A stretch of DNA of 63,287 bases from a virus. Positions 7,366 to 56,592 of the stretch are shown in pieces. The position numbers and the translations under genes were made by a program. The notes beneath the pieces are model-generated. The model did no database searches. It had not been told where the DNA came from and saw only the letters and a program-made list of their open reading frames with translations. The number at the start of each line of letters is the position of its first letter. The stretch's first letter is position 1. The stretch lies in IMG/VR virus record IMGVR_UViG_3300048623_000041, positions 1-63,287 of that record; one strand, given 5' to 3'.

Positions 7366-8190
7366 TCAGCCGGGGCGCATGTCCCCTGGCAGAAATTGCA
7401 GAACCACTTCAGTCAAGCCCTGGAGCGGCGTGAATGTCAGGATCAGGATACCACGGGTGGTGGCGAGCCGGATCAGACACTCACCATATACGTCGAGAGG
7501 CACCTCCTCGTCCAGCCATATGATCTCCTTGGCCGTGCCCTCGAACGCTTTTCGGCCTTGCTCGTACGACTTGATCCCAAGGATTGACCAACCGCCGGTC
7601 TTGTGGCGGATCGGCACGGTGTCGACGAGGTTGGCGACACCCTGCTTCCAGGAGATGCCATCGATGTCGATGCAGTCGCGCGGGATCAGGCCGGAGCCAT
7701 CAACGATCTTGCGATTGTTCGCGAACCCGATCTCGCCAAGCAGTTCCTTCTGAACCGTGTCGCGCGTCGTCTCGTTCCGGGCGCCGGCCGCCCAGACGCG
7801 GACGGGCTTGCGGAACTGCCTGCCCTCCCACCATGGGCGATACTGCCCGGTCAGGTGGCTTGCGACCTCCCAGGCCCCCGCTACCGATTTTCCGATTCTG
7901 TTGGCGGCAAGGAAGCATCTTTCCCGATAGAGCTTCCCGGCCGTGAAGTGCTCCATGTGCTTCGGGTAAGCTTGCCGGCTGAGCGGCCCGTCCTCGGGAA
8001 ACAGATCATAGAACCGGTTGAACCGCGCCCGCTCCTCGTCAGCGAGGATGTCCGCCAGCAGCGCCTCGGCCTCGGCATCCGACAACGTGGCGAAGATCTG
8101 CGTCGGGTCGAACTTGTCGGGGTCGAAGCCGGGCTGCGCGCGGAGTTTCGCGGCTAGGTTATCGAGGAGGGACATCTGGCATGCGCACAA
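7366..8190 (-). CDS. terL: Terminase large subunit, N-terminal ATPase half only
   Basis: Walker A AANRIGKS, Walker B IIWLDEE, TFTP motif. The ORF ends ...VVLQFLPGDMRPG at TGA 7368-7366 and has no nuclease domain. The start may be ATG 8175 (MSLLDNL). Confidence 0.85.
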   Translation of the reverse strand: MCACQMSLLDNLAAKLRAQPGFDPDKFDPTQIFATLSDAEAEALLADILADEERARFNRFYDLFPEDGPLSRQAYPKHMEHFTAGKLYRERCFLAANRIGKSVAGAWEVASHLTGQYRPWWEGRQFRKPVRVWAAGARNETTRDTVQKELLGEIGFANNRKIVDGSGLIPRDCIDIDGISWKQGVANLVDTVPIRHKTGGWSILGIKSYEQGRKAFEGTAKEIIWLDEEVPLDVYGECLIRLATTRGILILTFTPLQGLTEVVLQFLPGDMRPG

Positions 8191-9225: not shown

Positions 9226-9861
9226 TCATGCCCGCTTCCTCCGCTCGCAAGTCCCGCACGCCATGTCGACCGCGGCGGCGCCAATGCTCGGCCCCATGTT
9301 CGCAACCCGGACCATCTCACTGACGCCGGTCGCGACAGCACCGTAGCGTTCGACGACACCCACAAACTCCTCGACATCATGCCCCCTGATGGCGAACTTT
9401 GGGGAGCCGTCGCGCCCGAACTTGGGCTGTCCATATTCATCGCGATCCTGCGCCGCGTGATAAAGCTCGTGCTCGACGACGGCGCAAAACGCCGCATCGT
9501 CCGCATGGTCGCACCACGGGGCCAGCAGCGTGATCACGAAGTCCGGGACATGCCCGAACCATTGCTCAATCTGATATTCGGCGCGCGCCCGCTGCCATTT
9601 CCCCATAGCCATCGGCGGCATGATTTCGCACTGGCCAATGATGTTGCGCCCGCCCCGGCTGTTACCGATATCGGTCCAAAGAAACCCAAGCTCTGCCTGT
9701 TGCAGATGCTCATGCGCCGGGTTGTGCAACGGCCCCGCCTCGTCAATGAACGTCCGGCGTACCCATTCCTCAACCTCTGGTGCGGGCACAAAGCCCAGCA
9801 ACGGCATATCTACCGGAGGACGAGGACGGCTGTCCCGGACGAGGCGGAGCAACTTTTTCAC
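9226..9861 (-). CDS. Putative phage metallopeptidase (HExxH)
   Basis: 211 aa with VVEHELYHA and a C-terminal CGTC. Confidence 0.6.
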   Translation of the reverse strand: MKKLLRLVRDSRPRPPVDMPLLGFVPAPEVEEWVRRTFIDEAGPLHNPAHEHLQQAELGFLWTDIGNSRGGRNIIGQCEIMPPMAMGKWQRARAEYQIEQWFGHVPDFVITLLAPWCDHADDAAFCAVVEHELYHAAQDRDEYGQPKFGRDGSPKFAIRGHDVEEFVGVVERYGAVATGVSEMVRVANMGPSIGAAAVDMACGTCERRKRA

Positions 9862-10121
9862 GCCGTCTCAAACCTCGCCAGATGCTCGCTCGGCACCGTC
9901 AACCGCAACGGCTGCTCGACGGCCCTGACCGCACGGGCGAAAGCATCCTCGCCGTGTGTGGCGGCCATACTGACGTTCCGCTGATCGATGCCGGGGGTCG
10001 CCCGCAACCTGTCGATCAGGCAGTTCCAGCACGCCTCCATCGCCAGAATATCGTTGATGAGCGCGACCTCGCCGTCATCGAGATCGCGTCTGCCAACCAC
10101 TCCTCTTCCATCAGTTTCCAT
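9858..10121 (-). CDS. Hypothetical protein
   Basis: 87-aa ORF overlapping both neighbours by a few nt. Confidence 0.5.
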   Translation of the reverse strand: METDGRGVVGRRDLDDGEVALINDILAMEACWNCLIDRLRATPGIDQRNVSMAATHGEDAFARAVRAVEQPLRLTVPSEHLARFETA

Positions 10122-10926: not shown

Positions 10927-11575
10927 ATTTCCTGTTGTTCAAAACCCAGGTTTTCCATGCGTCCTGCCAACTGACGAACTTCGCGCCGGTCTTGGCGTGG
11001 TGGGCTCGAAAGTGTTCGAGTTGATGGTCGAGTTCGCCCGGTGGCCATCCGTCGATGACCTTCTGGGATTTAGTGGTTGGGCCGAACGGTTCGGGAGCCC
11101 AGTCTTCGGGAAGCGGTCTCGCGTGCGCGCGTGACTCGGGTTTATTATTCTCTTTCTTCCCTTCTTCCCTTTCTTGTTCTGTGTCCTGTCGCTGTCCTGG
11201 GCCTGTCCCGTCTGGCGTCTTGCCGGCTGTCTTGCCGGTCTGTTTTTCAACCTGAAATAGATCGTAATTACAGATCGTTACGACGTTAACCCCTGTCTCG
11301 CTATGCGTCTTGACCATTGTCTCGGTTTTGAGACGTGTAAAAAGCCTCTCAACCCAGCCTTTCGAGCGGTCCATAGCCTCGGCGAAATCACGGATGGAGA
11401 TGGCGAGCTGGCCGCGCTGAAGGGGGACGGACAGTCCTTTATAGCGGACGCGCACGGGCCTCCACGCGGCTCTGGCAATCATCCAGGCAAAGGCCATGGC
11501 CTCGCTATCGTTGCGGAAAGCAGGATGCCCGATCAGCGATCTGTGGAGGCGGACGTAGCCAGAATCCGAGGTCAT
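10862..11575 (-). CDS. Replication initiator-like protein (N-terminal wHTH, Lys/Glu-rich linker, C-domain)
   Basis: ORF trimmed to MTSDSGYVRLHRSLIGHPAFRNDSEAMAFAWMIARAAW..., an N-terminus I recall from prophage replication proteins. The linker region holds iteron-like repeats. Confidence 0.55.
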   Translation of the reverse strand: MTSDSGYVRLHRSLIGHPAFRNDSEAMAFAWMIARAAWRPVRVRYKGLSVPLQRGQLAISIRDFAEAMDRSKGWVERLFTRLKTETMVKTHSETGVNVVTICNYDLFQVEKQTGKTAGKTPDGTGPGQRQDTEQEREEGKKENNKPESRAHARPLPEDWAPEPFGPTTKSQKVIDGWPPGELDHQLEHFRAHHAKTGAKFVSWQDAWKTWVLNNRKFGNGNGNRTGDRPSGWVAARP

Positions 11576-12099
11576 GGCGCCTCGCGCATTTCTTGCGTAA
11601 GCCTCCATACGTGGTCGGCTATCTCTGCTATGCAGCTTTCGACATCGGCATATAACTCAGAGCCCGCAAAACGCAGGACGGTGATCCGACACGATGTCAT
11701 GAATCGATCACGCCGCTTGTCGTGACGCGCTTGGTCTTTTGTGCGCTCGTGGAACTCGTGACCGTCGCACTCGACTACCACTAGGCGCCGATTTCTACCC
11801 TCATTGATGTCCAATAAAAAGTCGGCACGAAATTTCCCCACACTTGCCTGCATGTGCACATCAATGCCGTCGCCAGGCATTGTGGGAGCTTCGTCATGTT
11901 CAAAACCTGGCCGCGTGAAATACGATATCCGCGTGCCGGCGGACATGTATCCCGGCGCAAAAGCCATCAACCCGGCTAACAAAATTTCTTCTATAGGGCT
12001 TTGGCAGGCGACCTTGGTAAACTCGAATCTGCGGCGGAACACGGCCGCGCGAGCATCAGCGGCGGCTTCAATGATCGACTGAGCGCGATTTTCACTCAC
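11572..12099 (-). CDS. DUF559/Vsr-like PD-(D/E)xK endonuclease
   Basis: FRADFLL...RRLVVVECDGHEFHERTKDQARHDKRRDRFM...ITVLRF. The DNA is locally more A/T-rich. Confidence 0.65.
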   Translation of the reverse strand: MSENRAQSIIEAAADARAAVFRRRFEFTKVACQSPIEEILLAGLMAFAPGYMSAGTRISYFTRPGFEHDEAPTMPGDGIDVHMQASVGKFRADFLLDINEGRNRRLVVVECDGHEFHERTKDQARHDKRRDRFMTSCRITVLRFAGSELYADVESCIAEIADHVWRLTQEMREAP

Positions 12100-16436: not shown

Positions 16437-16742
16437 CTAGGCCGCCTGTTCGGGCTGGGGGTGAAGGTGCTGATCCACCCAATCCTGGGCGCGTACATAT
16501 TCGTCTGGTGGAACGCTCTCGGGATCAATGCCGAGCTCTGTGGCGACAATCTTGCGCGTCGCCATCTCTATCAAATGAATCCACTCCGGCGGGGTGACAT
16601 GCACACCATCGCGGTACTTCTGGATTTTCTGGGACTTGTTTTGGCCCGGCTCCAGCTGCGTACTGGCCTCCGCTGCGCAGAGGTCATAAAAAGCGACCAT
16701 GTTTAGCATCGGGCGGGCGGCGAGAAAGGGTCTGAGCTGCAT
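16437..16742 (-). CDS. Cro/YdaS-like regulator, divergent from the repressor
   Basis: Trimmed to ATG 16742, because the track ORF start lies inside the operator. KYRDGVHVTPPEWIHLIEMATRKIVATELGIDPE resembles the YdaS/Cro family. Confidence 0.55.
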   Translation of the reverse strand: MQLRPFLAARPMLNMVAFYDLCAAEASTQLEPGQNKSQKIQKYRDGVHVTPPEWIHLIEMATRKIVATELGIDPESVPPDEYVRAQDWVDQHLHPQPEQAA

Positions 16743-16753
16743 AGACAATAAAA

Positions 16754-16770
16754 TTATCTTAATACGATAT
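16754..16770. promoter_or_regulatory. Operator-like dyad site A1: TTATCTTAATACGATAT
   Basis: Lies in the cro-like/cI-like divergent region. A TTGACA on the minus strand (16778-16773) sits 2 nt away. The site is 19/19 identical to the copy at 17649. Confidence 0.7.
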
Positions 16771-16790
16771 TTTGTCAATGCCTCTCATTG

Positions 16791-16805
16791 ATCTTATCAC
16801 GATAC
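16791..16805. promoter_or_regulatory. Operator-like site A2: ATCTTATCACGATAC
   Basis: Degenerate copy (about 13/16) 36 nt from A1, upstream of the repressor start. Confidence 0.5.
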
Positions 16806-16829
16806 GACTGTACGGCGCCGCTCGCGTAT

Positions 16830-17471
16830 ATGCTTTACATGGCAGCGAAGCGGAAAATCCGAAAAACCGGCGGCGAGATCTACGCGCCCAATCGTATTGC
16901 GGAAGAGCGCAAGGCCAAGGGCCTGAGCACGCTCGAGCTGTCGCTGATGATCGAGGCCTCACCCGGAACGGTCAACCGGCTGGAGAATCGCAAGGCCGCG
17001 CTCAGCGTCGACTACATGCTGGCAATCGCCAAGGCTCTCAACATTCCGGCCGAACGGCTGCTGCCGAGCCCGACGCTGGTCACAAGCCGGGCGCTCCCGA
17101 TTCTCGGACGCGTCGCCTGCGGAAACTGGCGGGAAGCTATCTCCGAGGCCGAACGCTTCAAGGACGTCGAGGACGACCCCGACATCGGCGGACCGAACGC
17201 CTTCGTACTCGAGCCCGAGGGCGATTCCATGGACATGATCATGGAGGACGCGCGCTGGATCGTCGTCGATCCCGACCAACCCGACCTGATCGACGGCAAG
17301 TTCTACGTCATCATGAACATGGATGGCGAGACGACCTTCAAGCGTTTTCGCGCCGATCCCGCCAGGCTCGAGCCGAGCTCGTCCAATCCCGACCACAAGC
17401 CGATCCTGGTGGGCCGCGAGCCCTTCACCGTCATCGGCCGTGTAACCCTCAGGGTCGGCTCCCCCCAATAG
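16830..17471 (+). CDS. CI/LexA-like repressor (XRE HTH plus S24 peptidase)
   Basis: HTH: LSTLELSLMIEASPGTVNRLENRK. S24 domain: Ser in GDSM and Lys in TFKRF. Start is ATG 16830 or 16839. Confidence 0.85.
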   Translation: MLYMAAKRKIRKTGGEIYAPNRIAEERKAKGLSTLELSLMIEASPGTVNRLENRKAALSVDYMLAIAKALNIPAERLLPSPTLVTSRALPILGRVACGNWREAISEAERFKDVEDDPDIGGPNAFVLEPEGDSMDMIMEDARWIVVDPDQPDLIDGKFYVIMNMDGETTFKRFRADPARLEPSSSNPDHKPILVGREPFTVIGRVTLRVGSPQ

Positions 17472-17615: not shown

Positions 17616-17632
17616 ATATCGTAATAAGATAT
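17616..17632. promoter_or_regulatory. Operator-like site B1: ATATCGTAATAAGATAT (inverted orientation)
   Basis: Perfect ATATC-N7-GATAT dyad downstream of the repressor gene. Confidence 0.65.
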
Positions 17633-17648
17633 TTCTCGCTTGACGGGT

Positions 17649-17665
17649 TTATCTTAATACGATAT
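17649..17665. promoter_or_regulatory. Operator-like site B2: TTATCTTAATACGATAT
   Basis: Identical to A1. TTGACG (17640-17645) lies 3 nt upstream. It precedes the plus-strand early genes. Confidence 0.7.
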
Positions 17666-17679
17666 TTCAGGTTCCAGAG

Positions 17680-24779: not shown

Positions 24780-25888
24780 CGATCGCTGCTGCCGACCGCA
24801 AATACTGGGCGGTCATGAAGCAGCTTGAGTGCTGCCCGACCTGCCACCGCCCCTACGAACAGCCCCAAGATCGCAAGGACAAGCTCGTCACCGAAGCGAT
24901 CGAGACCTACCTGATTTCGGTCGAGAGCCGCCCCAGCTACAAGGCGATCAAGAACCGGATCAAGCACGTCACCCGCTATCTCGCGATGACCAACGCGGCG
25001 ATCACCTGCCCCCAAATCGGTGACCCGTGGATAGAGGCGTTCCGGACGTGGAACGCCGCTCAGCAGATCATCAGTCCATCGGGGAAGGCCCGCGCGCGGA
25101 CGCTCTCAACCGTCGAGAATAGCGTGCTGCAACTAGCGGCGGCGATGCGCTTCAACAAGATCCAACCCCAGTTCAAGGTCATCCAGCCCAAGGATGTCAA
25201 CCAGACCCCGCTCTACCGCGCCGACATCCCCACGATCGCCCGGGCCTTCCGCTACTGCGTCTATGCCGAGGACGAGACCCGCAGCGACAAATGGCGGTTA
25301 CGTCGGATCGCCGAGCGCGATCAGTTGCTGCGTTTCCTCCGCGTTTCCATTTGCACCTTGGCCCGGCCCGATGCCGCGCACGAGGTTTCGACCGCTGCCG
25401 AGCGCCGACAGTGGAACAGCGCCGCCAAAGTCCTGAACCTGAACTATACCGGTCGCCGGCAGACCAAAAAATACCGGGCCGTCGTCCCGATCGCTCAGCA
25501 ATTTGCACCACTACTGGATGGCTGCTCCGGCCTCTACGTCACCGTCAACGGCGTTGGCACCGCCCACGACAAGATGACCCGTAAGCTGGATCTGCCCGGC
25601 ATGGGCGAGTCCGGCATGAAACTCTGGCGCCGGTCCATGGCGAACATCCTGCGGTCACGCCTTCCGGTTGCCGCCTGGGACGAGATTTCGATCTTCATGG
25701 GCCACGATAAGTTCGATGACGTCAGCGACCTCTATGCCCCGTTCCGCCCGGACTATCTGCGCGCTGCATTGGCAGAAATTGAATCGGTTATCGATGAGAT
25801 CGAAGCCGCCTGTCCGGGTGCCTTTTACCCCAACTTTACCGCAAGAGGTGAAAACGTCGTCAGCATCGGAGCCGGAAGGAATGGCTGA
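24626..25888 (+). CDS. int: Tyrosine integrase
   Basis: 420 aa. Arm-binding-like N-terminus (LVITWYDTTAGRERSASAGT). C-terminal catalytic region (LARPDAA, WRRSMAN, FMGHD, LYAP). A tRNA 3' fragment follows 17 nt later. Confidence 0.85.
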   Translation: MPKTRRPKPLYQRGPVRLDRRDDRTNLVITWYDTTAGRERSASAGTADVELAIAAADRKYWAVMKQLECCPTCHRPYEQPQDRKDKLVTEAIETYLISVESRPSYKAIKNRIKHVTRYLAMTNAAITCPQIGDPWIEAFRTWNAAQQIISPSGKARARTLSTVENSVLQLAAAMRFNKIQPQFKVIQPKDVNQTPLYRADIPTIARAFRYCVYAEDETRSDKWRLRRIAERDQLLRFLRVSICTLARPDAAHEVSTAAERRQWNSAAKVLNLNYTGRRQTKKYRAVVPIAQQFAPLLDGCSGLYVTVNGVGTAHDKMTRKLDLPGMGESGMKLWRRSMANILRSRLPVAAWDEISIFMGHDKFDDVSDLYAPFRPDYLRAALAEIESVIDEIEAACPGAFYPNFTARGENVVSIGAGRNG

Positions 25889-25949: not shown

Positions 25950-26201
25950 CGAAATCGCTACTCAGGAAACGAGCGGAAATCTGCCGATTTGTGCGCAGGG
26001 GTTACAAGAACGAGCGGGGAACAAACACCCGATTTGCAGCAAGTTTACCGCAGCCTTACCGCGCGCTAATCAGCGCCAATGCCCGAACCCGTCTACCACC
26101 TCACCACCGGCGAGATCATCGCCTACGCCATCCCGCTCGACGAAGTGGCCGCCAGCGAAGCCCAAGACGAGGCCGAGAAAAATTCGCAGCCGGGTGACGA
26201 T

Positions 26202-26218
26202 TTATCTTAATGCGATAC
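26202..26218. promoter_or_regulatory. Operator-like site C: TTATCTTAATGCGATAC
   Basis: 15/17 match to A1, 50 nt upstream of the PEP-CTERM gene. Confidence 0.55.
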
Positions 26219-26268: not shown

Positions 26269-26892
26269 ATGCGGTTCATCGGACCCTTAGTTGCTTGCGC
26301 TTTCCTCGCTGCTCCGGCGGGGGCTTCAACATATCTCGCTGAACTACACGGCGTCGTAAGCCAGCAGATTGATCTAAGTTTCAGCGACCCGCACGTTAAA
26401 CTTGGCGACGTCTACACGATCACGGCCCGGTTCGACGACAGCATGATCGAACCATATTGGTCGACTGATGGCACGCAACTGATTGCGGCACATGCGGTCT
26501 CTTTTCAAGGCGCGCCCCTGACCGGCGACTTTTCGTTCAAGGTCGAAGGATCGGGCTTTGAATGGAGCAGCTTCACCGATCGGCTCGACGGTGCCCGCCT
26601 GTTCTTCGACAACGGCAAGGTTTCAGGCTTTAGCGGCGATCTCCTGCCAGCCGAGACCGATGAGCGGCCGGGAATCGAAAGCTCCGGCCCGGCGTTGGCG
26701 CATATCTACGGTGGCGAAAATACCGACCTGAACAACTACAAGAGCCCCGGCTTCTGGGTGACGTGGGATCTCGATGGATCGAAGGTGACTGCCGTTCCCG
26801 AGCCCGCATCGTGGGCGATGATGATCGCCGGGTTCGGGTTGGTCGGGGGTGGCCTGAGGCGTCGCGCCAAAGGGGTGATAGCAAAGGTCTGA
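26269..26892 (+). CDS. Secreted PEP-CTERM (PEPxxWA-type) sorting-domain protein: prophage cargo
   Basis: Signal peptide MRFIGPLVACAFLAAPAGA. C-terminus VPEPASWAMMIAGFGLVGGGLRRR. Confidence 0.8.
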   Translation: MRFIGPLVACAFLAAPAGASTYLAELHGVVSQQIDLSFSDPHVKLGDVYTITARFDDSMIEPYWSTDGTQLIAAHAVSFQGAPLTGDFSFKVEGSGFEWSSFTDRLDGARLFFDNGKVSGFSGDLLPAETDERPGIESSGPALAHIYGGENTDLNNYKSPGFWVTWDLDGSKVTAVPEPASWAMMIAGFGLVGGGLRRRAKGVIAKV

Positions 26893-26895
26893 CCC

Positions 26896-27105
26896 GTGGC
26901 GTGGGCCGGTCTCGCCTATGCCCTAGCTATCTTCGGCGGAATCGCCGCGCTCTTCTATCATGCGAACCGTCGCTCGGGGCCGCGTTGGAAAGTAGCGGGC
27001 TACTCAGTGCTGTTTGTGCTCTTGCTGTTGACAGTCGGCATGCTCCGCATGGGCGGCTCCGATGATTGCGGAACGGGTTTACCGGCGCGCTATCAGGACT
27101 GCTAG
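26896..27105 (+). CDS. Small membrane protein
   Basis: 69 aa, two hydrophobic segments, GTG start. Confidence 0.45.
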   Translation: MAWAGLAYALAIFGGIAALFYHANRRSGPRWKVAGYSVLFVLLLLTVGMLRMGGSDDCGTGLPARYQDC

Positions 27106-30100
27106 TCCGCCGCCATCACCTCGTTCCAGCGCCGGTTGAACGCCGAGATAACGGTCTTCTCCCGATCGTCGAGCTTGGTCTTGATATCCTTGTAGGCAGC
27201 GTCGTCGACCTTCTCCAGATCGTGCGCCATGGTCAGCTTGCCGCGATCCTTCCGGATCGAGCGCATCTCCTTGCGCGCGGCCTTCATGACCGGGACCAGC
27301 TTGAGCACCGTCGACTTGTCGTCGATCAGCTTGGTCAGGCCCTCGTCGTCGCCCTTCTGGTGATAGTCCTTGGCCCAGCCCATCGTCTGCTCGATCTGGT
27401 CGACGCGGTCGTAATAAAGCGACTTGTCGAGCCAGCGGGGCTTGTCGCCGACGACCTTGCGGACGAACGGGAAATCATCTGGCTTCAGCTCACGCTCCGG
27501 ATCGAACGGGGCGGCAGCGAGATTGCCGACCTTCATGACGAAGCGGCCGGCGCCACCCGCGAAGTATCCACCCAGATAGTCCAGTACCTCGGGGCTGACG
27601 CTGACGGCGCCGGGGATGACGTCGTCGCCGCCGGTAATGCGGTTGAGGAACTGCGCGGCCACCCGCGATTCGGTGCTGACCGAGGGAAAGAAATTGTTGC
27701 TCGGGGTCGGCGGCGGCTCGAACGGCGACGGGTTCGGCTGGATCGGCTTACCGGTAAAATCCTTGTTGGTCGCGATCTCTGCCACGGGGTCGATCGCGGT
27801 CGGGAGAATCGTCGTCAACAGGCTGTTGCTGCCCAGCGGATTGAAGGCGTCGAGCGACGTCCACAGCGCCTCTGCGCCGGCATCGAGCGCGCTGCGGCCA
27901 TGGAGCACCTCGGAGAGGTTGCGGCCGAGACTGACGAAGGCGTTGAGACCAAGCCCGAGCGGGATCTTGATCGACTTGTCACCCCAGCCGGGCGCGAGCA
28001 GGATCAGGTTGCGCTCCTTCTCGAAGTCCGGAACCTTCGACCAGTAGCTTTGGCCGTCATCATCATCATCGCTCGCCCAGCGGTTGAGCATGTCGAGCAT
28101 AAAACCCAGCGCGACGGCGCCGACGAGGGCGCCACGGACTTTACGTGAGCGCCCGGCGGCGATCATGAGCGTGGCGCTACCCTGCACCGAGGCGTTGAAG
28201 AAGGCATAGAGGCTGTTGATGACCGGCCCGTACTGTCCGCGCCGGGTGAAGTTGACCGTGGCGTTGCGGGCGAGCGAAGCGGCCTGGCCCTTGGTCATGC
28301 CGCCCTCACGCGCGTTCTTGTAGGCGGCCAGGCGCACGGCGTTCTCGACCCGGTCATTGACCTTGTCGACGGCTTCGAAGAACCGCATCGCCCCGACCTT
28401 GAGACTGATGCCCTTGCCGGACATGGCGCGATCGACGCGCGCCCTGATGCTGTTCAGGTCCGACAGGTCGTTGAAATAGACCTTGCCGCCTGCGAGCTCG
28501 AATTCCCGGCGCCATTTACCCCACTCGGTATCGGTGCCCTTTGGCGCCATCAGGGCCTTGCGCCAGTCGCGGACGATGCCGCGCACCATCCCCGGTACAT
28601 CATGCTGGCTGAGGTTGACCCCCGCCGTCTGGATGTCGCGGAAGGCGTTGGTGATCAGGAATTCCGGGTTCCACGTGGTGTTGATCCGCGAGAACAGGCG
28701 GGTAAACGATCCGATGATCTTGACCCAGGGCTGAAGCTGCTGCGCCGAGAGGTTGCGCATGGCGTCGGCGACACGCACGGCGGCCGGATTTTCGCGGTTC
28801 ATGGTGACGCGGTGCTCGACGCCATCGATCTTGAGGCTGACCGTGTACGGCGCGTCCTCGGCGCTGATCCGGCTTTCGCTCCGGTATTCGACCTGGCCCT
28901 TGGCGCTGTTCCACACGGCCTTGCGCGTGATCTTGTCGATCTTCCAGAAATCGGGGTCCGGCGCTTCCTTCGCGAGATCATGGAAGCTCTGGCCGACGCG
29001 GTTGGTCTCAGCGCGCTGGATCGCTTCCTCGGCCTGCATGATCGAGTAGGCGAGGATATCGCTGGCTCTGGACTTGCGGCCGAAGGCGCGGCGCGACTCC
29101 TTGCCCCTGACGGTGATGCCGGAGCCGCCTTTCATCGGGCGGTCGCTGTTCGCCTCGGGGTCGAGTTCGGCCTTGCCGCGCAGTGGCGCATAATGTTCAT
29201 ATTGCTTGCGCCAGATATCGGCCTCGGCTTGGCTGAGCAGCCCGGCCTCGACGCGGGTATCGACCGCGAATTTGAGGATGGCGTCGACTTGAGCGGCCAG
29301 CGCCTTCACGGCATCACGGCGGGGATCGCGCTCGACGGCGGCCACGATCTCGGCGGCCTCTTCGTCACTCATGCCGGAACCGCCCTCGGGGATTTCCGGG
29401 TTGATCTCGGCGATCCGCTTGTTCCGCTCCGGGGCGTGGCGGGCGTAGACATACGCCTCCAGCTCATCGACGCTGACGCCCGCTTCCTTCATGCCATCGA
29501 ACAGCGGCGCCACCATGTCGTCGGCCAGGCGCTCGAGCTGGGCACCGATCTTGCCGGACATCAGTTCTTCGGAATGATAGGGCCGCTGCGCTTCCGGCAG
29601 GGCCTTACCGAGCGTCTTTTCCACCGCCTGCTGCAGACGGAGCACCGGCAGCATCCGGTCCTGCAGAGCGGTCCTCCAGCGATCGAAGCCGGTTTCCGCA
29701 CGGGGATCGCCGTCTCCGGCCTCGCGCTGGCTGTCGACGAGGCGCTGGGCGCGTTCTTCGGCTTGGGCGGCGAGCGTGTCGTCGGGGTTCGTAGCGTCCC
29801 GGCCTAGCGGGGATGGGGCGCCGGTTGCGGGGATGCTGTATTTTGCCAGCACCTTCACGCGGCTGTCGTCGAAGACGACGTAGTTGTAGGTGCCGTCGCC
29901 CGCGGTGCGCGAGCCGCCGTCGAGATATTTTATGCCGGCGATGCCTGCGTCGTGAAGCAGAAGTGATGCGTCCTGCTTGCCGTTCGATCCATCGGTGTCG
30001 ACGTCAAGCTCGACCCGTGAAAGCATGCGATAGAACTCGCCGCCCGTGTAGGCGCTGTCATCAAGCTCGACCGGGTTCATGCCCTGCTCGTCGAGGCGTT

Positions 30101-33100
30101 CATTGATCTGGTCGAAGGCTCCATCGGGAACGCGGAGAAGCGCCTGCTTCACAACCTCGGGCTGCTCGCTGAGAGGCTTGTCCCACAGAAGATATTCTCC
30201 GTCGTCAGGGATATCTACTTCGTAGAGCTTGCCGGGCTTCTCGACCCCGATCTCCGCTCGATGTTTCGTAAGCCAATTAATGCAGCGCTGATATGTGTCG
30301 CGAACCCGACCCGTCTCTCCGGACATTTTGTCGGCGAATTTATCGATAGCCTTAGCGACGCTGCCATAGATTCGCACATATTCTAGAGCTTGAGCACCGT
30401 CCCATTGATCTTCGGTCCACACGCCGGCCCCGAAGATATCGTTAGGCACTGCCGTGTCGATGCCGTTCAAAGTGACCCTCGCCTGTCCACGGCTCAACTT
30501 GTCGCGATAGTGCTCGGCAATGCCCTTCTTGCCCGCGAAGTATAGCCCATATCCGTAAGCCTGCGCGCCCTCGCCCGTGCCGATCTTCTCGGTCGTGAAG
30601 CGATCAAAATCATGCGGGCTACCATGATAGGCGGCCTGCAACATCGGTCGCCGCGACTTCCAAGATACCCGCGCACCCCGCCCCGCCCCGGTCTCACGTG
30701 CGCCAATCGTGCCATCGGCGATATCCCGCAGCACCGCCCGGCTGTCGGCATACCCCCGGCCCGTCCACATCTCGCGCACGGCCCGCAGGAACGACGCCAG
30801 CTTGTCGAAGGCGATGCGGGCGAAACCCTTCACCTCGGCACGCTTGGCCTGATAGCTGGCGAAGAGATCGGCGACGGCTTCCTCGCGGATCAGGTCGATA
30901 TTGTTGCCGTATGGCTTCGAGTAGCGCTGCGTGACGCTGTCCATCAGCGCCGCGTCGCTTTCGGCCAGGCGCACCAATGCCGACCATTCGGTGCGGTTGA
31001 ACAGCCCCAGTTCGCGCGCGGCATGGATCGCCTCGTGGTCGAGCGTGAACGCCCCGTCCTGCGAGGCGTCCATCGCGACCTGAATGAATTTGTTGAAATA
31101 GCGGCCCGCCGTGCCATCAGGGGCGTCGACAATGCGGCCCACGACATCGAGCGCGATGCGATCGGCAAGGCCATACCCCTTCAACCGTTCGATCAACTCG
31201 TCCCGTATTTGCCCCAAATCTGCACGGTCGTTGTTGTTTTCTTCATCGAGAAGGAATAGATTGAGTTCGTCGCGAGGGCCATCCAACGCAGGTGCGGTCC
31301 CTCCCTCGGGAGAATCCCTTCCGGCAGTAGGCCGGCTCGCGACACTTTTTTTCCCATTCGTGATGTGCGTCAGGTCGTATTGAAAGCGGCCCTCTTTGGT
31401 CTCACGCACGAACACGCCAAGTCGCTTGACCTCACCACCGATCGAAACCGGGGCGGCATAGAGGTGCATCGCGTGAGTGCCGACCGAATCACCCGGCCGC
31501 GTCTCTACCAGCGCACCTTTCTCGATGATCGCGCGTATCGCGGGGATGGCCTTGATCAGATCAGGCCCCTTGCTCAGTACCTTCTTCTGGCCCCGGTCAT
31601 TGAAGCTGACGCGGTGGCCGTCGGACGACATGACGGTGCGGGCGAAGAGGTTGGAGCGGAACCACTTGCGGGCGGCCTCGCGCAGGGCAGGCATGTCGGC
31701 GCGGCTGTGGACCTCGACGCCGAGCTCGTCGCCGGAGAGGGTGGCGACGGGGTTGTCTGGGAGGCTGTAGAGTCTGGTGCCCTGCTCTGTGGATTCGTGC
31801 TCGATGGTGTCAATGAAGCGATCGAACCCCTCGCGGATGACTGGAATCTCCGAAGCGACCGGGTAGGGATATCCGTCCTCAAGCGCATAAACTGAGGCGC
31901 TTACGACGTTAGCGAGATAGTCGTTTCGAAAGCCGTTATCGGCGAGCTTTGCAATGACATAGCTTTCGAACGCGCGCGCGCTCATCTCGATGTCCGTGGA
32001 CCAGTACGCCTTGGTGCGACGCTTATCGAGATTGGCTGATCGCTCCTTGATGGATGTCTGTCGGATTGACGCCATCACGGCTTTGAAGGCCTCAACCATT
32101 TCCGGCCGCACGCCGTCTCGGGCAAGGCCGGGGGCGCCCGTCATATATTCGTCGCCGCGACCGCCCTGCCGTGAAAAATAGTTGTCGAGGCTGTGCCACC
32201 ATTCGTGTGCGAGCGATCCCGCGCCCGCGTTTTTGGTCAGGTTGATGACGATACTGCCGCGCTCGTAATGCGCCGCAGCGGCGTTGATCCCACCCTTGCC
32301 GCGCGCGCCAAAGGCAAGACCCAACTGTCCGTTGAGCGACAGTGCCGCTGGCGGTACTTCGAGCAGGCCGGCGAGATCCATAAGGGCGTCGTAGGCTTCG
32401 TTGAGGTCAGCTTGCCGGCGCTGACCCTCGACATAGTTTCCGAACTGCACGCCACGGAACCCGAAGGTCTCGCTGAACTGCTGAGGATTGACGTCGGCAC
32501 CGGCACGATAGTTCTCGCCGATGCGCGGCGAGTTCACCGTAGAGCGCTCATTCGGAATATGCTTCCACGATTCCAGCTTGGTTTCGAGCGCAGCGCGGTT
32601 TTCAGCGATATAAGCACGCGCTTCCTTCACCGCGGCCTTTCCGGCTTCCTTGTCAGCCGGGTCGAACGGAATTTCGTGGAGGTCGATATATTCACGTCCA
32701 ACCTTCTTGCCGATCAGCCAGCGGCCAGGCTTCGATCGGAAGGAGTATATCTCGAACTTGGTCGGAGCCTTGGGCTGGGCCGTGAGACCGCCGCGCTCGA
32801 CGAACCCCTTGAACTTGGCAAGCGCTTCCTCGCGGGTATCACCCGTCGTCAGATCGCGAGGCCAGTTGCTGAAGGCGGTTGCCTTGGCCTTTGCCGAAAC
32901 GCTCCAGATCGTGCGTGGCGGGCTGTAAGTGACACCGGCGTACATCGAATAGCTGGCCGCCGAGAGCGTGATCCCTTTGAGCGACTTCTCGTGGCCGACG
33001 GCTTCGTACAGGTCGATCGTGCCCTGCAGGTCGGCATAGGCGCGCCCACCCTTGGCGAGCACGCCCCTCATGCTTTCGCTGCCGCTGCCATCGAGCATGT

Positions 33101-36100
33101 TGTTCGCGATCCGGCGCAGATCCGTGACCAGATCGACCCAGCCTTTGAGCTTCCAGGACTTCTGCGGTTTCGTCGGAATTGCATCGCGCATGGCGCGCAC
33201 GGCTGAGACGACATAGCTATCAGCGCCACCCTCGAGCAGCTTCAGATAATCCGGCTCCGGCCACGACCTCGATAGCGGCTCGGCTGCAATGTCCACCTCG
33301 CCGGCTTCGGCCATGCGATCCTTGTAGGATTGCGCATAGTCCTTCCGCGCGCCGTGCAGCTTCTCGCCAAAGTCGTCGATCTTTGAGACAGGGGGCTGAT
33401 CTGGCGTCGGCTGGCGCGAAGCGAACATATCGCTCTGATCGCGCTCGGCGGAGAGGAAACCGCCCTCCTGGTCGGACAATCCCACTTGATCGAGCCGGCC
33501 CGACCTCGGCTGCTGCTGCCGGGCGGCGATCTCGCTGCGTTGTCTTTCGGTGAGCCCAACCCGCTCGGGCTGCGCGGCGTCTAGGCCGAGGCTTCCGTCT
33601 TCGCTGGCTTGTGACGCTCCAGTTTCGCCAGATTGCTCGCGTGACGCTTGGCGCTCGCCCGCGTCTCCGGATCGACCCGGCGATCGTTCGACAGGAGCTG
33701 GAGCTTCTGGCGCATCTGCTGCGGTGTTGGACGCTCTTTCATCGCCCGCTGGTATATCATCGAACCCCGGCACGTCATAGAGGCTCGCGCCGGTCTGCTC
33801 ATGGGCCGTGCGAAGATCCACGGCACCGCGAGACATGATGACGTGCTCGATCGCTCCGAACGCGCCCATTTCGGGAACGAGGGGCAGCGCAGCGGCAATC
33901 TCGTCGTCGCGAACATCGAGACCCAGGTCGGAAACAATGTGGTCGATCTCATCGCGGGCGCGACGTTCCTCGCCGCCGGCATCACGCTCGCGCGCGGACT
34001 GGTCGACGGCTGCAACGGCCTCGGGCGGATAGACCTTCTCACGGGCACCGCGCTCGATCAGTTGCAGCACCTGATCTTCGGTCGGGCGCGGGGTCGTCGA
34101 AGGTGGACCGAAATAACCGCGCTCGTGGAGAAATTCGCCAGCGGCGTCGATCGTCATGCCGGTCGAGCGGATCAGGGCGCCCGCCTTGGGAATGAACCGC
34201 TGGAGGTTGCGGCCCTTCTTCAGATCGTGGCGGGGCCGTCCGGTTGCGCCGATCTCGTCCTGAATGCCGCCCGCCTGCGCGAGTGCCGTGATGACGTCGG
34301 TCGGATTTGCGGCTGACCGCTTCGCAGCGATCTTGGCCTTGAGCGCGTCCTGCTTCGAAAGAGGAGCCGGGGATTGAACAGATTGCTCGGTCGCCCCCCG
34401 GCCCGAGTCTATAGGAGAGGATGCCTGAAAGGCAGGATCCGATATAGCAGCGTTTTCCGGATTGCGTAATACGATATTTTCAGCGGCGGGTTTTGAGGTG
34501 TCACCCTTGAGCCATTCCTTGAACTGATCGATGGGCATGGCAACCACGCTGCCCGCACGCTCCGCACCCCGGCCGTCGGAGAATGCTGCATGGTACGCCG
34601 CCATCGCCTGATCCTGCGAGGCATAGCCGATCATGGCTTTATGCTCATCGAACTTTCGGGAATCGGCATCGACCTGATCGACCACGTAGACGGTCGGCGC
34701 CGTCGGGTGCGGGCCGACGTAGACGTCCACCTGATCGCCGTCGGCGCCCTCGGTGCGTTTCACATACCCGTAGGCATCGGGCATTGTGACGGACCATGGC
34801 TTGCCATCGGGATCGGTGCCCGACCGGGTCGATCCCTTCGGGTTCTCGATCGCGATGTCGAGGCCTTGGACTTTCACATGCACTTTGGCATAATTTCCGG
34901 CCTTGGCCTGCGCCTCGGTCGGCTCGGCGGCGTTTGCGCTGGCGGCTTCCAGATGATCCGGGTGAGTGACGTCGATCGGGGCCGCGCGCGTACCGTCGCC
35001 TAGCGGCGCCAGTTTCCCGGTCTGAGGATCGAGCCACCCGATCTGCTTCGTCGAATCCTGCTCGTCGAAGACGGGCTCACGGGTTTCGGCGGGGGAAAAC
35101 TCAATCGGCCGGTTTTCCCCCGGTTTTTCCCCTTCGCTTTCGGTCGCGTTTTCAGCAACTTGCTCAGTTGCCTGCATAGAATTTGGATAATTTCCCGCGG
35201 ATTCGGGAAAACTCACGCTCTGCGGATCCACCGCGACCCCATTCTCGCGCACCGTGTAATGCAGATGCGGCCCGGTCACATTGCCGGTCGCGCCGGATTT
35301 GGCGATCACCTGGCCGGCACCGATCTCATCGCCTACCGCGACGTCGGCACCGGACAGGTGAGCATATCCGGTAACAAGGCCATTGCCGTGATCGACGCGA
35401 ACGAAATTGCCGTTCTTCTCGTCGGATCCAACGGCGATGACTCGACCGGACGCGGGGGCACGCACGTCGGTTCCGACCGGCACGGCGATGTCGATGCCGT
35501 TGTGCTCGGAGCTCGCGCCGTCTTTCGGCGCTTCGCGGTGCCCGAAGGGTGAAGTGATCTGGCCCTCTACGGGAAGGCGTAGGGGTTGCCGGTCCTCATT
35601 CGCCTGGCCATGTCGTGCCGGTATCGGAGCGCCTGACTGCTCAAGTTCCGCGAACAGTGCATCGAACGGACCTCCCTCTGCTGCCGTGGTGGACTGGGGC
35701 TGCGCGAGGGGCGGCGCGGGTTCCGGGGCGAACGATGGTTCGGGTGACAAGGCGCCATCGACCAGCGACTTGCCGCGCGCGATGAGCTTGTCCGGGATCG
35801 CACTGGCGCGATCGTCTGGGGTGAGGAGCGCGTCTTCCTGCGCGGTCAGGGGCTGCTCGCTGAGCGGGGCACTATGGCCCACGAACGGATGCGCCGCGAC
35901 GTGCATGGCGCCGCCCGTGAAGAAACCGACGATACCGGCGTCGAGAAGCTGCTGCCTGGCCTCGCCCCACGTCATGTCTGGCTTGAGGATGCCCTTGTCG
36001 TAGCCGGTCTGCAGGGTCTGGGTAAAAACCTCCTGCAGACCCTCGGCACCAGCGGTCTTGAGCGTGCCTTTGAGGAAACTGCCGCCCGGCTTCATCATCA

Positions 36101-36851
36101 TGCCGAGCGGGATGCTTTCACCGATCGTCTCGGCGGCGGCCATGAAGGCGGCATCGACGGTCGCGGCGCGAGGATCGCGGCCATCGGCGCGGCTCTCGCC
36201 ATATTGCTGTGCGCCCACCTGGCCGCCCATGACGGCGGCGCCGAGTTGGGGGTTGCGCGTTGCCAGCGTCGTCGCGATCGCCGGAATCATCTGGACGACG
36301 CTCTGCGCGATCATCGGCAGATATTTCTTGGCTGCGCTGTCGCCGGGATTGATCTGGTTAGCGGCAAGATCGCGCGTGGCCGCATCGTAGATGGCCTGGC
36401 CGGGGACGGCGCCGCGCTTCCCCATCTCGACGAAGGTCTGAGGGGCGTCCAACGCCTCGCCACCGATCTCCGCGCTCGTGACCGGCGCACCATAGGGGGC
36501 ACCCTGTCCGTCTATGCCCTGCGCCGCACCGGCCTCGGCAATGCCCTGGATCGCGCCACCGACACTCTGGCGAAATGCCGGGCCAAGGCTGGACAGGGTC
36601 TTCTTGGCGACCGTGCCCCAATCATCCTCTGGCGCGTGATCCGGGACGTAAGGCGTGCCAGTCTTGACCGCCGTGTCCATGCGATCGGCGGCGCTACCAT
36701 AACGCGCGGTGACGGCGGCGTCCGTGCCCTGCCAGTCCTTCGCGATCGAGGCGCGCTCGGCTTCGGTCGGCTCTCCGGCCATGACCTCGGCGAACAGGTC
36801 ACGGGGCTTGGCGTCGCCGCCAGTCACCTCTGCAAAGAGATCGCGCGCCAT
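27102..36851 (-). CDS. 3249-aa polyvalent virion/ejection protein
   Basis: One uninterrupted ORF. Domains seen: M23 (HNGIDIAVPVGTDV...GPHLHY, nt ~35215-35585); PPase-like (IENPKGS...YGYV...DGDQVDVYV, nt ~34530-34905); HEWWH at ~32193-32207; HEAIH at ~31022-31040; YHGSPHDFDRF...GYGLYFA at ~30605; hydrophobic segments near nt 28090-28170. Confidence 0.9.
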   Translation of the reverse strand: MARDLFAEVTGGDAKPRDLFAEVMAGEPTEAERASIAKDWQGTDAAVTARYGSAADRMDTAVKTGTPYVPDHAPEDDWGTVAKKTLSSLGPAFRQSVGGAIQGIAEAGAAQGIDGQGAPYGAPVTSAEIGGEALDAPQTFVEMGKRGAVPGQAIYDAATRDLAANQINPGDSAAKKYLPMIAQSVVQMIPAIATTLATRNPQLGAAVMGGQVGAQQYGESRADGRDPRAATVDAAFMAAAETIGESIPLGMMMKPGGSFLKGTLKTAGAEGLQEVFTQTLQTGYDKGILKPDMTWGEARQQLLDAGIVGFFTGGAMHVAAHPFVGHSAPLSEQPLTAQEDALLTPDDRASAIPDKLIARGKSLVDGALSPEPSFAPEPAPPLAQPQSTTAAEGGPFDALFAELEQSGAPIPARHGQANEDRQPLRLPVEGQITSPFGHREAPKDGASSEHNGIDIAVPVGTDVRAPASGRVIAVGSDEKNGNFVRVDHGNGLVTGYAHLSGADVAVGDEIGAGQVIAKSGATGNVTGPHLHYTVRENGVAVDPQSVSFPESAGNYPNSMQATEQVAENATESEGEKPGENRPIEFSPAETREPVFDEQDSTKQIGWLDPQTGKLAPLGDGTRAAPIDVTHPDHLEAASANAAEPTEAQAKAGNYAKVHVKVQGLDIAIENPKGSTRSGTDPDGKPWSVTMPDAYGYVKRTEGADGDQVDVYVGPHPTAPTVYVVDQVDADSRKFDEHKAMIGYASQDQAMAAYHAAFSDGRGAERAGSVVAMPIDQFKEWLKGDTSKPAAENIVLRNPENAAISDPAFQASSPIDSGRGATEQSVQSPAPLSKQDALKAKIAAKRSAANPTDVITALAQAGGIQDEIGATGRPRHDLKKGRNLQRFIPKAGALIRSTGMTIDAAGEFLHERGYFGPPSTTPRPTEDQVLQLIERGAREKVYPPEAVAAVDQSARERDAGGEERRARDEIDHIVSDLGLDVRDDEIAAALPLVPEMGAFGAIEHVIMSRGAVDLRTAHEQTGASLYDVPGFDDIPAGDERASNTAADAPEAPAPVERSPGRSGDAGERQASREQSGETGASQASEDGSLGLDAAQPERVGLTERQRSEIAARQQQPRSGRLDQVGLSDQEGGFLSAERDQSDMFASRQPTPDQPPVSKIDDFGEKLHGARKDYAQSYKDRMAEAGEVDIAAEPLSRSWPEPDYLKLLEGGADSYVVSAVRAMRDAIPTKPQKSWKLKGWVDLVTDLRRIANNMLDGSGSESMRGVLAKGGRAYADLQGTIDLYEAVGHEKSLKGITLSAASYSMYAGVTYSPPRTIWSVSAKAKATAFSNWPRDLTTGDTREEALAKFKGFVERGGLTAQPKAPTKFEIYSFRSKPGRWLIGKKVGREYIDLHEIPFDPADKEAGKAAVKEARAYIAENRAALETKLESWKHIPNERSTVNSPRIGENYRAGADVNPQQFSETFGFRGVQFGNYVEGQRRQADLNEAYDALMDLAGLLEVPPAALSLNGQLGLAFGARGKGGINAAAAHYERGSIVINLTKNAGAGSLAHEWWHSLDNYFSRQGGRGDEYMTGAPGLARDGVRPEMVEAFKAVMASIRQTSIKERSANLDKRRTKAYWSTDIEMSARAFESYVIAKLADNGFRNDYLANVVSASVYALEDGYPYPVASEIPVIREGFDRFIDTIEHESTEQGTRLYSLPDNPVATLSGDELGVEVHSRADMPALREAARKWFRSNLFARTVMSSDGHRVSFNDRGQKKVLSKGPDLIKAIPAIRAIIEKGALVETRPGDSVGTHAMHLYAAPVSIGGEVKRLGVFVRETKEGRFQYDLTHITNGKKSVASRPTAGRDSPEGGTAPALDGPRDELNLFLLDEENNNDRADLGQIRDELIERLKGYGLADRIALDVVGRIVDAPDGTAGRYFNKFIQVAMDASQDGAFTLDHEAIHAARELGLFNRTEWSALVRLAESDAALMDSVTQRYSKPYGNNIDLIREEAVADLFASYQAKRAEVKGFARIAFDKLASFLRAVREMWTGRGYADSRAVLRDIADGTIGARETGAGRGARVSWKSRRPMLQAAYHGSPHDFDRFTTEKIGTGEGAQAYGYGLYFAGKKGIAEHYRDKLSRGQARVTLNGIDTAVPNDIFGAGVWTEDQWDGAQALEYVRIYGSVAKAIDKFADKMSGETGRVRDTYQRCINWLTKHRAEIGVEKPGKLYEVDIPDDGEYLLWDKPLSEQPEVVKQALLRVPDGAFDQINERLDEQGMNPVELDDSAYTGGEFYRMLSRVELDVDTDGSNGKQDASLLLHDAGIAGIKYLDGGSRTAGDGTYNYVVFDDSRVKVLAKYSIPATGAPSPLGRDATNPDDTLAAQAEERAQRLVDSQREAGDGDPRAETGFDRWRTALQDRMLPVLRLQQAVEKTLGKALPEAQRPYHSEELMSGKIGAQLERLADDMVAPLFDGMKEAGVSVDELEAYVYARHAPERNKRIAEINPEIPEGGSGMSDEEAAEIVAAVERDPRRDAVKALAAQVDAILKFAVDTRVEAGLLSQAEADIWRKQYEHYAPLRGKAELDPEANSDRPMKGGSGITVRGKESRRAFGRKSRASDILAYSIMQAEEAIQRAETNRVGQSFHDLAKEAPDPDFWKIDKITRKAVWNSAKGQVEYRSESRISAEDAPYTVSLKIDGVEHRVTMNRENPAAVRVADAMRNLSAQQLQPWVKIIGSFTRLFSRINTTWNPEFLITNAFRDIQTAGVNLSQHDVPGMVRGIVRDWRKALMAPKGTDTEWGKWRREFELAGGKVYFNDLSDLNSIRARVDRAMSGKGISLKVGAMRFFEAVDKVNDRVENAVRLAAYKNAREGGMTKGQAASLARNATVNFTRRGQYGPVINSLYAFFNASVQGSATLMIAAGRSRKVRGALVGAVALGFMLDMLNRWASDDDDDGQSYWSKVPDFEKERNLILLAPGWGDKSIKIPLGLGLNAFVSLGRNLSEVLHGRSALDAGAEALWTSLDAFNPLGSNSLLTTILPTAIDPVAEIATNKDFTGKPIQPNPSPFEPPPTPSNNFFPSVSTESRVAAQFLNRITGGDDVIPGAVSVSPEVLDYLGGYFAGGAGRFVMKVGNLAAAPFDPERELKPDDFPFVRKVVGDKPRWLDKSLYYDRVDQIEQTMGWAKDYHQKGDDEGLTKLIDDKSTVLKLVPVMKAARKEMRSIRKDRGKLTMAHDLEKVDDAAYKDIKTKLDDREKTVISAFNRRWNEVMAAD
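34461..34477. promoter_or_regulatory. Intragenic operator-like copy F: ATTGCGTAATACGATAT
   Basis: TAATACGATATTTT is identical to A1/B2; the left arm is degenerate. It lies in an inter-domain linker of the giant gene. Confidence 0.35.
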
Positions 36852-40182: not shown

Positions 40183-40257
40183 GCCCCGATCCCCCTGCGC
40201 CGGACACTACAGGAAGTGCAGAAATATTTCCATATCCGATATTATCGGTTGATTGAG

Positions 40258-40274
40258 ATATCCTAATACGATAC
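40258..40274. promoter_or_regulatory. Operator-like site D: ATATCCTAATACGATAC
   Basis: Lies in the divergent region between 40182 (-) and the tRNA island (+). Palindromes GAAATATTTC (40221-40230) and CCGATATTATCGG (40236-40248) are adjacent. Confidence 0.55.
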
Positions 40275-54524: not shown

Positions 54525-54541
54525 CTATCCCAATACGATAT
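54525..54541. promoter_or_regulatory. Operator-like site E1: CTATCCCAATACGATAT
   Basis: Begins 5 nt from the GTG of the terL C-half. Confidence 0.55.
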
Positions 54542-54556
54542 ACGCGCTTGCGTAAA

Positions 54557-54573
54557 ATATCTTGTTAGGATAT
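54557..54573. promoter_or_regulatory. Operator-like site E2: ATATCTTGTTAGGATAT
   Basis: Perfect ATATC-N7-GATAT arms. Confidence 0.55.
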
Positions 54574-54618
54574 TTAAAGCCCCCATGATGTCCCCACCGC
54601 GCGATAACAGCAGATTAA

Positions 54619-54635
54619 ATATCGTATTTAGGAAT
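54619..54635. promoter_or_regulatory. Operator-like site E3: ATATCGTATTTAGGAAT (inverted orientation)
   Basis: The reverse complement is ATTCCTAAATACGATAT. Confidence 0.5.
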
Positions 54636-54700
54636 TCTTGGGAAGGCCTAGCGGTTTATGCCGCCTGTGCTCTGTTCCCCCTCCCCCGCCAGGTGCCGGC

Positions 54701-56549: not shown

Positions 56550-56592
56550 TCCCGCTAATCCCTCCGACGACTGGGGAAGGGTGAGCATGGGC
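56535..56592. repeat. Direct repeat copy 2
   Basis: GGGCCCGCAGCATGATCCCGCTAATCCCTCCGACGACTGGGGAAGGGTGAGCATGGGC. It contains the RBS and ATG of the next gene. Confidence 0.9.

Follow-up and report, generated by a model that had tools for sequence, protein, structure and literature searches.

In phage lambda, neighbouring operators lie 23–24 bp apart. The C1 repressor of phage P1 has 22 operators with the 17-bp consensus ATTGCTCTAATAAATTT, and these are dispersed over the genome (PMC8546580). The stoperators of mycobacteriophage L5, more than 20 in number, are asymmetric 13-mers that are bound by a monomer carrying two DNA-binding domains and act only in one orientation relative to transcription; many are located in short within-operon gaps, where they stop elongation (PMC9283540). 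In the telomere phage PY54 the cro mRNA starts at the AUG, with the promoter immediately upstream, which provides an experimental precedent for leaderless cro (PMC4488713). We compared these systems with a palindrome that recurs in an uncultivated phage genome and that probably serves as the operator of its immunity switch. Below, "the window" denotes the whole stretch of DNA that was analysed, a JGI metagenome assembly of 63,287 nt.

Bases 1–127 of the window are identical to bases 63161–63287, and this terminal identity indicates a closed complete circle of 63,160 bp. A prophage with host flanks is ruled out, as the contig is circular. The genome has a G+C content of 63% (59% for intergenic DNA) and is organized in six strand blocks that meet at three divergent switches (16742/16830, 40182/40357 and 54520/54701) and three convergent ones. 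No phage close to the window was found in the INPHARED collection, while identical DNA is present elsewhere in public data in one Logan contig and two JGI contigs, all at 100%. The gene content is that of a temperate phage: it includes a CI-type repressor (16830–17471), an SU10-type portal, the nuclease domain of a large terminase, two tRNA genes, DNA methylases, a PEP-CTERM protein and a 3249-aa polyvalent protein. For both the repressor and the terminase, most homologues belong to Sphingomonadales. Pfam or PHROGs tests of about 50 ORFs brought up no recognizable integrase or partition gene, and many ORFs of the phage are unannotated. In one relative (L115) the right arm ends with a tyrosine integrase; the window protein encoded at the equivalent position (24815–25888, 357 aa) is unrelated to that integrase.

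The large terminase of this phage is split. Its ATPase half (7366–8190, minus strand) covers positions 1–153 of the Terminase_6N profile, and its nuclease half, terL-C (53762–54520, minus strand; Terminase_6C), lies 16 kb away through the origin, with fibre-like genes and an accessory block in between. Homologues of the short terL-C proteins (about 247 aa) number 1,926, and in three relatives (L109, L116 and L117) the terminase halves are adjacent yet separate ORFs. The low-GC3 accessory block contains two pairs of direct repeats, one of 188 nt (57210–57397 and 58113–58300, 81% identity) and one of 34 nt (55784–55817 and 56535–56568, 94% identity). The PEP-CTERM protein (26269–26892, plus strand) has a sorting signal (E = 2e–7), which makes it a candidate exosortase substrate, and a predicted operator-bearing promoter stands ahead of its gene. 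The polyvalent protein (27102–36851, minus strand) contains M23 peptidase, InPase and LPD1/3/5/38 domains and a weak ADP-ribosyltransferase match; its assignment as an N4-type virion RNA polymerase was rejected. A low-GC3 ORF at 11572–12099 (minus strand), uncalled by the gene caller of the source, ends in ECDGHEFH...RD...VLRF, a motif that, read by eye, appears typical of DUF559 or Vsr-like endonucleases. A half-site of the palindrome described below lies inside this ORF (11919), probably by chance. A weak precomputed match to Acb2_Tad1_hairpin, a family of anti-defence nucleotide sponges, was noted at 9858–10121 (minus strand; listed as L004 3029–3292). Such a match, not marked weak, is also present among small early-left genes in the relative L114 (9342–9587), and Tad2-like genes occur in L110 and L116.

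The recurring motif is a 17-mer with the palindromic consensus WTATCKTAWTAMGATAW and the half-site ATATC(G/T)TA (ATATCKTA). Its symmetrized form is ATATCGTAATACGATAT, and individual sites have 4–7 of 8 self-complementary position pairs. This is a fuller palindrome than the (A/T)TATC-N7-GATAT dyad that an earlier sequence-only reading of this DNA had proposed. With up to three mismatches, WTATCKTAWTAMGATAW is found at exactly ten loci, versus 0.12 expected genome-wide (shuffles preserving composition in 40- or 100-bp blocks). Intergenic DNA alone, which totals 2,960 bp in these counts, holds nine copies versus 0.021 expected when each gap is shuffled separately. Other descriptions of the motif are overrepresented as well: the exact pattern WTATC-N7-GATAT occurs at four loci (0.05 expected), and the consensus TTATCTTAATACGATAT with up to three mismatches at six (0.02 expected). 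Moreover, in an unbiased word count no 8-, 9- or 10-mer of the genome was more over-represented than AATACGAT, AATACGATA and AATACGATAT, respectively. The count of perfect 5-N7-5 dyads was uninformative, with only two perfect ATATC dyads present. Candidates with four mismatches (11259, 59604) are at chance level, and a second motif, ATTTCCATATC, prompted by the relative L109, showed no enrichment in the window.

The ten sites form six loci spread over 38 kb. Nine of them lie in promoter-type gaps, five gaps in all, and seven of the nine fall within the three divergent regions; every divergent region contains at least two copies. Six same-strand gaps of 80 bp or more are without any copy. The sequence-only reading had listed ten copies, with at least one at each divergent switch, and all ten were recovered at its coordinates, although the one placed at 16791 is better registered at 16789–16805. 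The identity of the 16754 and 17649 copies over 19 nt, which it also reported, agrees with the sequence.

Four copies are arranged on the two sides of cI in the manner of O_R and O_L. On the cro side, the predicted operator O_R1 (16754–16770; TTATCTTAATACGATAT, no mismatches) fills the spacer and the –10 element of the leftward cro promoter. Predicted O_R2 (16789–16805; TGATCTTATCACGATAC, three mismatches), 35 bp from O_R1, is weaker than the other three switch sites; it overlaps the candidate –10 of cI and doubles as an upstream auxiliary site for the cro promoter. The other two copies are situated 145–195 bp past the cI stop codon, ahead of the next operon on the same strand. Predicted O_L1 (17616–17632; ATATCGTAATAAGATAT, no mismatches) is auxiliary and lies directly upstream of the early-right –35, and predicted O_L2 (17649–17665; again TTATCTTAATACGATAT, no mismatches) lies over the early-right spacer and –10.

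The remaining copies are remote from cI. A predicted operator at 26202–26218 (TTATCTTAATGCGATAC, two mismatches) begins 2 nt after GTGACG (26194–26199), 51 bp upstream of the ATG of the PEP-CTERM gene (26269). Its position is also compatible with activation from about –42 of an alternative promoter, ACGACA-17-CATACT. The orphan copy at 34461–34477 (ATTGCGTAATACGATAT, two mismatches) is placed within the polyvalent protein gene, where it has no obvious role, and is the only copy inside a transcription unit. In the divergent gap between the ejection block (40182, minus strand) and tRNA-Met (40357, plus strand), a predicted operator at 40258–40274 (ATATCCTAATACGATAC, two mismatches) follows TTGATT (40249–40254) after 3 nt. 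A weak eleventh, auxiliary copy (40226–40242; ATTTCCATATCCGATAT, five mismatches) lies 32 bp upstream of it; this copy is credible by position alone, and a near-identical variant of it is present in L109. The third divergent region holds three copies. The auxiliary copy at 54525–54541 (CTATCCCAATACGATAT, three mismatches) lies 4 nt ahead of the start of terL-C (54520), and 32 bp separate it from the predicted operator at 54557–54573 (ATATCTTGTTAGGATAT, with perfect outer dyad arms), which stands 3 nt after TTGCGT (54548–54553) and 11 nt before the ATG at 54585. The copy at 54619–54635 (ATATCGTATTTAGGAAT, three mismatches) is found, on the minus strand, 3 nt after TTCCCA (54644–54639), and may be the operator of a promoter that reads leftward into terL-C and the virion genes.

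Five copies of the motif belong to a common module in which a –35 hexamer is followed, after 2–3 nt, by the 17-mer. The –35 hexamer is TTGACA at site 16754 (leftward, cro), TTGACG at 17649 (rightward, early-right operon), GTGACG at 26202 (rightward, PEP-CTERM gene), TTGATT at 40258 (rightward, tRNA island) and TTGCGT at 54557 (rightward, accessory block). These assignments are based on a relaxed scan combined with comparison with relatives; a strict E. coli-type promoter scan missed at least four of the five. A –35-like hexamer at 2–3 nt was found for four of the ten sites (p = 0.0014), and the TTGCGT of site 54557 matches a –35 variant of the relatives, in which TTGCNN is used at the same position. 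In four of the five modules an auxiliary copy is located 32–35 bp upstream (16789, 17616, 54525 and the weak 40226). The cro promoter reads TTGACA-16-TAATTT (minus strand; –35 at 16778–16773, 2 nt from the site, and –10 at 16756–16751), and the early-right promoter TTGACG-17-TATTTC (plus strand; –35 at 17640–17645 and –10 at 17663–17668). A candidate rightward cI promoter, TTGTCA-17-TATCAC, has its –10 at 16795–16800. The sequence-only reading was correct about the perfect minus-strand TTGACA and about the TTGACG 3 nt before 17649, and its placement of the sites at promoters is borne out by their location in the spacer and –10. For the leftward terL-C/virion and ejection blocks, which have sites upstream of them, no clear promoter was found; the weak candidates are TTCCCA with site 54635–54619 at 3 nt, and TTTCCA separated by 18 nt from a TATCGT within site 40258.

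The predicted transcription start of the cro promoter coincides with the ATG at 16742. The same frame precedes cro in all eight phages compared: a –35-like hexamer, 1–4 nt, the operator and, 8–12 nt beyond it, an ATG. In these phages 28–32 nt separate the end of the –35 from the cro ATG, and no Shine-Dalgarno sequence is present. Given this conserved spacing, a sigma-70-type start would fall at or beside the A of the ATG, and we predict that a leaderless cro is a trait of the family. The nearly leaderless cro mRNA envisaged earlier from one sequence thus gains the backing of a geometry conserved in eight phages. A 39-aa ORF (54585–54704, plus strand) has the same layout relative to its promoter and operator as cro does and is probably leaderless too. 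Its stop codon overlaps the start of a C5 DNA methylase gene (ATGA at 54701), and it looks like a translationally coupled upstream ORF.

The repressor gene (16830–17471, plus strand) encodes an HTH_3 domain at the N-terminus (residues 23–75, E = 8e–9) and a Peptidase_S24 domain at the C-terminus (E = 4e–19), and its product matches the phrog_4 transcriptional repressor (E = 5e–32). In an alignment with LexA, VAC/G of CI falls on the LexA cleavage site VAA/G, and the GDSM serine (Ser133) and Lys171 are invariant in 11 homologues. At its cleavage site, Val-Ala-Cys-Gly (approximately residues 94–97), the window protein carries Cys-Gly, the UmuD-type site, in place of the Ala-Gly seen in LexA and in all ten aligned homologues. 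Since the LexA-like C-terminal domain, the cleavage site and the Ser/Lys pair are kept, the repressor should be SOS-inducible. The 101-aa protein encoded divergently from it (16437–16742, minus strand) is an orphan by sequence and is assigned to the Cro position by location and collinearity. We found no match for it in Pfam, PHROGs, two large protein searches or a PDB profile search; a single-sequence model (pLDDT 65.5) gave no match in a fold search and no detectable HTH. Among the collinear Cro-position proteins of the relatives, four of five have weak HTH_3, HTH_31 or YdaS matches, and the window protein probably binds the same sites as CI.

Seven related phages were retrieved via CI homologues that are 40–53% identical to the window protein. 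All seven carry 16–17-bp dyads at both window-equivalent places around cI, with differing sequences: TTAGC-N7-GCTAA (L001), TTAGCC-N4-GGCTAA (L111), TTAGCC-N5-GGCTAA (L113), TTGTCCG-N3-CGGCCAA (L106), ATATC-N7-GATAT (L109/L110), TTATC-N7-GATAA (L115) and ATGTC-N7-GACAT (L114). The recognition helix HFTT(I/L)AK is accompanied by the TTAGC class in three of three phages and by no other class, and helices of the form (S/T)x(G/A/S)T(V/I)x(R/K) are paired with WT(A/G)TC. For L113, the operator class was predicted from the helix before the DNA was read. This tracking of the recognition helix by the dyad class points, indirectly but specifically, to the repressor family as the reader of the dyads. 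The covariation is loose within the ATATC class, as the window and L109 have the half-site in common but differ in their recognition helices (SPGTVNR versus TTATIHK).

Although the operators differ in sequence, they sit in a conserved promoter-operator frame. Downstream of cI, seven phages share the order operator A, 6–8 nt, TTGNNN, 3–4 nt, operator B, and the terminal TA of operator B opens a –10-like hexamer 16–18 nt from the –35; the operator pairs of the relatives are, as a rule, 31–35 bp apart here. In six of seven relatives the operators are confined to the two regions adjacent to cI (about 20 kb around cI examined), and dispersal outside the immunity region was seen only in the window and its closest relative, L109/L110. 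In L109, a perfect dyad and a second copy lie exactly between the terL-N stop and the terL-C start, and a further promoter-like module is found upstream of the metallopeptidase-terS genes. The arrangement ahead of terL-C is alike in the window and L109, with two copies 12–15 nt apart just upstream of the start, and this likeness suggests that the virion operon may be gated separately. No CI gene was found within 10 kb of terL-C in L116 and L117, and these two therefore did not enter the covariation comparison at the terminase site. When compared with L110, L109 (8759–9028) is a patchwork of 100% identical L110 segments with overlaps of 2–6 nt at the joins, one junction adjoining operator-like sites; L109 is either a deletion derivative of an L110-type phage or an assembly shortcut.

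Overall, we regard it as probable that the palindrome is a CI/Cro operator that acts at five or more promoters. The sites, their statistics and positions, the conserved module and the covariation in relatives are seen directly; from these we infer binding, repression and cooperativity, the transcription starts, and the control of the leftward virion and ejection blocks. The palindrome would be the operator of a lambda-type immunity repressor, to which CI would bind, probably as a dimer. The promoter-proximal copy, 2–3 nt past the –35, would occupy the spacer and the opening bases of the –10; repressor bound there would exclude RNA polymerase. The second copy, 32–35 bp upstream, would permit cooperative binding, and this distance, three helical turns, fits such binding on one face of the DNA. 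The cI gene would regulate itself negatively through 16789, which covers its –10; activation of the cI promoter from 16754 is speculation. The early-right promoter just after cI would be the analogue of O_L/P_L. The targets would thus be cro and the early-right operon, together with three distant units: the PEP-CTERM cargo gene, the tRNA island and the accessory block divergent from terL-C. Most or all of the strand blocks of a lysogen would be silenced directly by a single repressor, and RecA-stimulated self-cleavage would release the silenced blocks together.

The behaviour of the motif supports its earlier interpretation as the operator of a CI/Cro switch, and its dispersal to distant promoters is real. 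The further suggestion that one repressor controls every transcription unit stands only at the level of strand blocks. Convincing modules are present for five units, four of them rightward, and the six same-strand gaps without a site speak against the wording.

One alternative that we consider unlikely is that only the four copies flanking cI work as operators and the distant copies serve otherwise. The latter might anchor long-range bridging by the repressor, act as roadblocks, or be recombination scars left at module boundaries by exchange between homoimmune phages. Most relatives have operators near cI alone, the 34461 copy is intragenic, the 54525–54635 cluster sits exactly at the edge of the 16-kb block that separates the terminase halves, and the patchwork L109 has breakpoints near such sites. 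However, sites 26202, 40258 and 54557 repeat the geometry of the switch promoters (–35, 2–3 nt, operator), and two of these three also have an auxiliary copy 32 bp upstream. Moreover, an ATG follows 54557 by 11 nt, exactly as at cro. Such a register is not expected of scars.

We give slightly less credence still to the idea that another regulator binds the motif, be it the Cro-position protein alone, another phage protein, or a MarR-type or other host factor, and that CI reads something else. Exact 15-mer and 17-mer scans of IMG/VR and metagenome contigs returned chance-like matches in A/T-rich contigs, with one exception, a contig of 60% G+C (L172) that has no similarity to the window phage. 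On this contig (500–545), ATATCACGCCACGATAT is directly followed by TATCTTAATACGATAT, two adjacent ATATC-N7-GATAT dyads that stand ahead of a MarR-like gene. The dyad appears to have an independent origin there, as the operator of another regulator family, which implies that other protein families can use it, and the many unannotated ORFs of the phage leave room for a further candidate. On the other hand, no other repeated dyad is found around cI, and dyads at the same position change with the CI recognition helix across the seven relatives. The motif is also unlike the alphaproteobacterial LexA box (GTTC-N7-GTTC), the CtrA box and the IHF consensus.

It is very improbable that the motif itself is a promoter for a phage-specific sigma factor or RNA polymerase. 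The motif does lie upstream of genes and its right end resembles a –10 element (GATATT), but it is palindromic, occurs in both orientations relative to genes and is adjoined by ordinary –35 hexamers, and no RNA polymerase or sigma factor domain was detected among the proteins tested. Finally, chance recurrence in A/T-rich intergenic DNA, an objection the sequence-only reading had raised against itself and one that an A/T-rich motif in a 63% G+C genome might invite, is refuted by the intergenic count, as 0 of 1000 shuffles reached nine copies.

A bolder form of the CI/Cro operator reading can be put forward only tentatively, and we doubt that it holds in full: in this sphingomonad-type phage lineage there may be no separate late-gene switch, one LexA-like repressor directly gating all six strand blocks, virion genes included. 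The virion genes would then be gated via the operator pair that is conserved between the halves of the naturally split large terminase. If this were true, self-cleavage would free early, accessory, tRNA and structural transcription at once.

For an uncultivated temperate phage of high-G+C Alphaproteobacteria, the CI/Cro operator reading yields a complete and testable wiring diagram that comprises the operator sequence, five promoter modules and leaderless starts. The reading would mean that a repressor of the lambda type, cleavable in the SOS response, can govern a dispersed regulon, hitherto tied to the unrelated P1 C1 and L5 gp71. The conserved frame with interchangeable specificities (ATATC, TTAGC and TTGKC classes) offers natural orthogonal repressor-operator pairs, and the repressor family is a clean case for the evolution of immunity specificity. 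The arrangement is a variant of a well-known mechanism, tidy and useful to the specialist and not surprising.

Of the systems named at the outset, the cluster A mycobacteriophages represented by L5 resemble the window in having genome-wide sites and silencing by one repressor. The likeness to stoperators drawn in the sequence-only reading nevertheless fails on every defining feature: the window sites are 17-bp palindromes located at promoters, beside a LexA-like repressor of the dimeric type that belongs to a different family. PY54 shares a leaderless cro, which is predicted in the window, but its Cro binds a single 16-bp site, and the report on it describes no operators at distant promoters (PMC4488713). 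As in P1, a single immunity repressor would directly control separate operons through dispersed operators, and this resemblance is functional only. The operators of P1 are asymmetric whereas those of the window are palindromic, and P1 immunity is tripartite (Coi, Lxc and c4 RNA). P1 C1 is an unrelated protein without an S24 domain.

The architecture of the repressor, HTH plus S24, is instead shared with lambda, 434 and P22. As in lambda, cI of the window lies between a divergent cro promoter and an early promoter of its own direction, comparable to P_R and P_L, and 17-bp dyad operators overlap the promoters, with a weak operator over the cI promoter. Site 16789 is comparable to O_R3, and 16754 abuts the –35 of cI roughly as O_R2 abuts P_RM. 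Induction by self-cleavage is expected as well. The window differs from lambda in having two operators per region instead of three, in the 32–35 bp between neighbouring operators, in the cleavage site (Cys-Gly), and in a predicted leaderless cro in place of a leaderless cI. It also has six more copies beyond the immunity region, at the cargo, tRNA and accessory promoters and beside virion genes, a spread that is unusual for this repressor family. By membership, as judged from its sequence, the system is a lambda-type CI system with an enlarged regulon.
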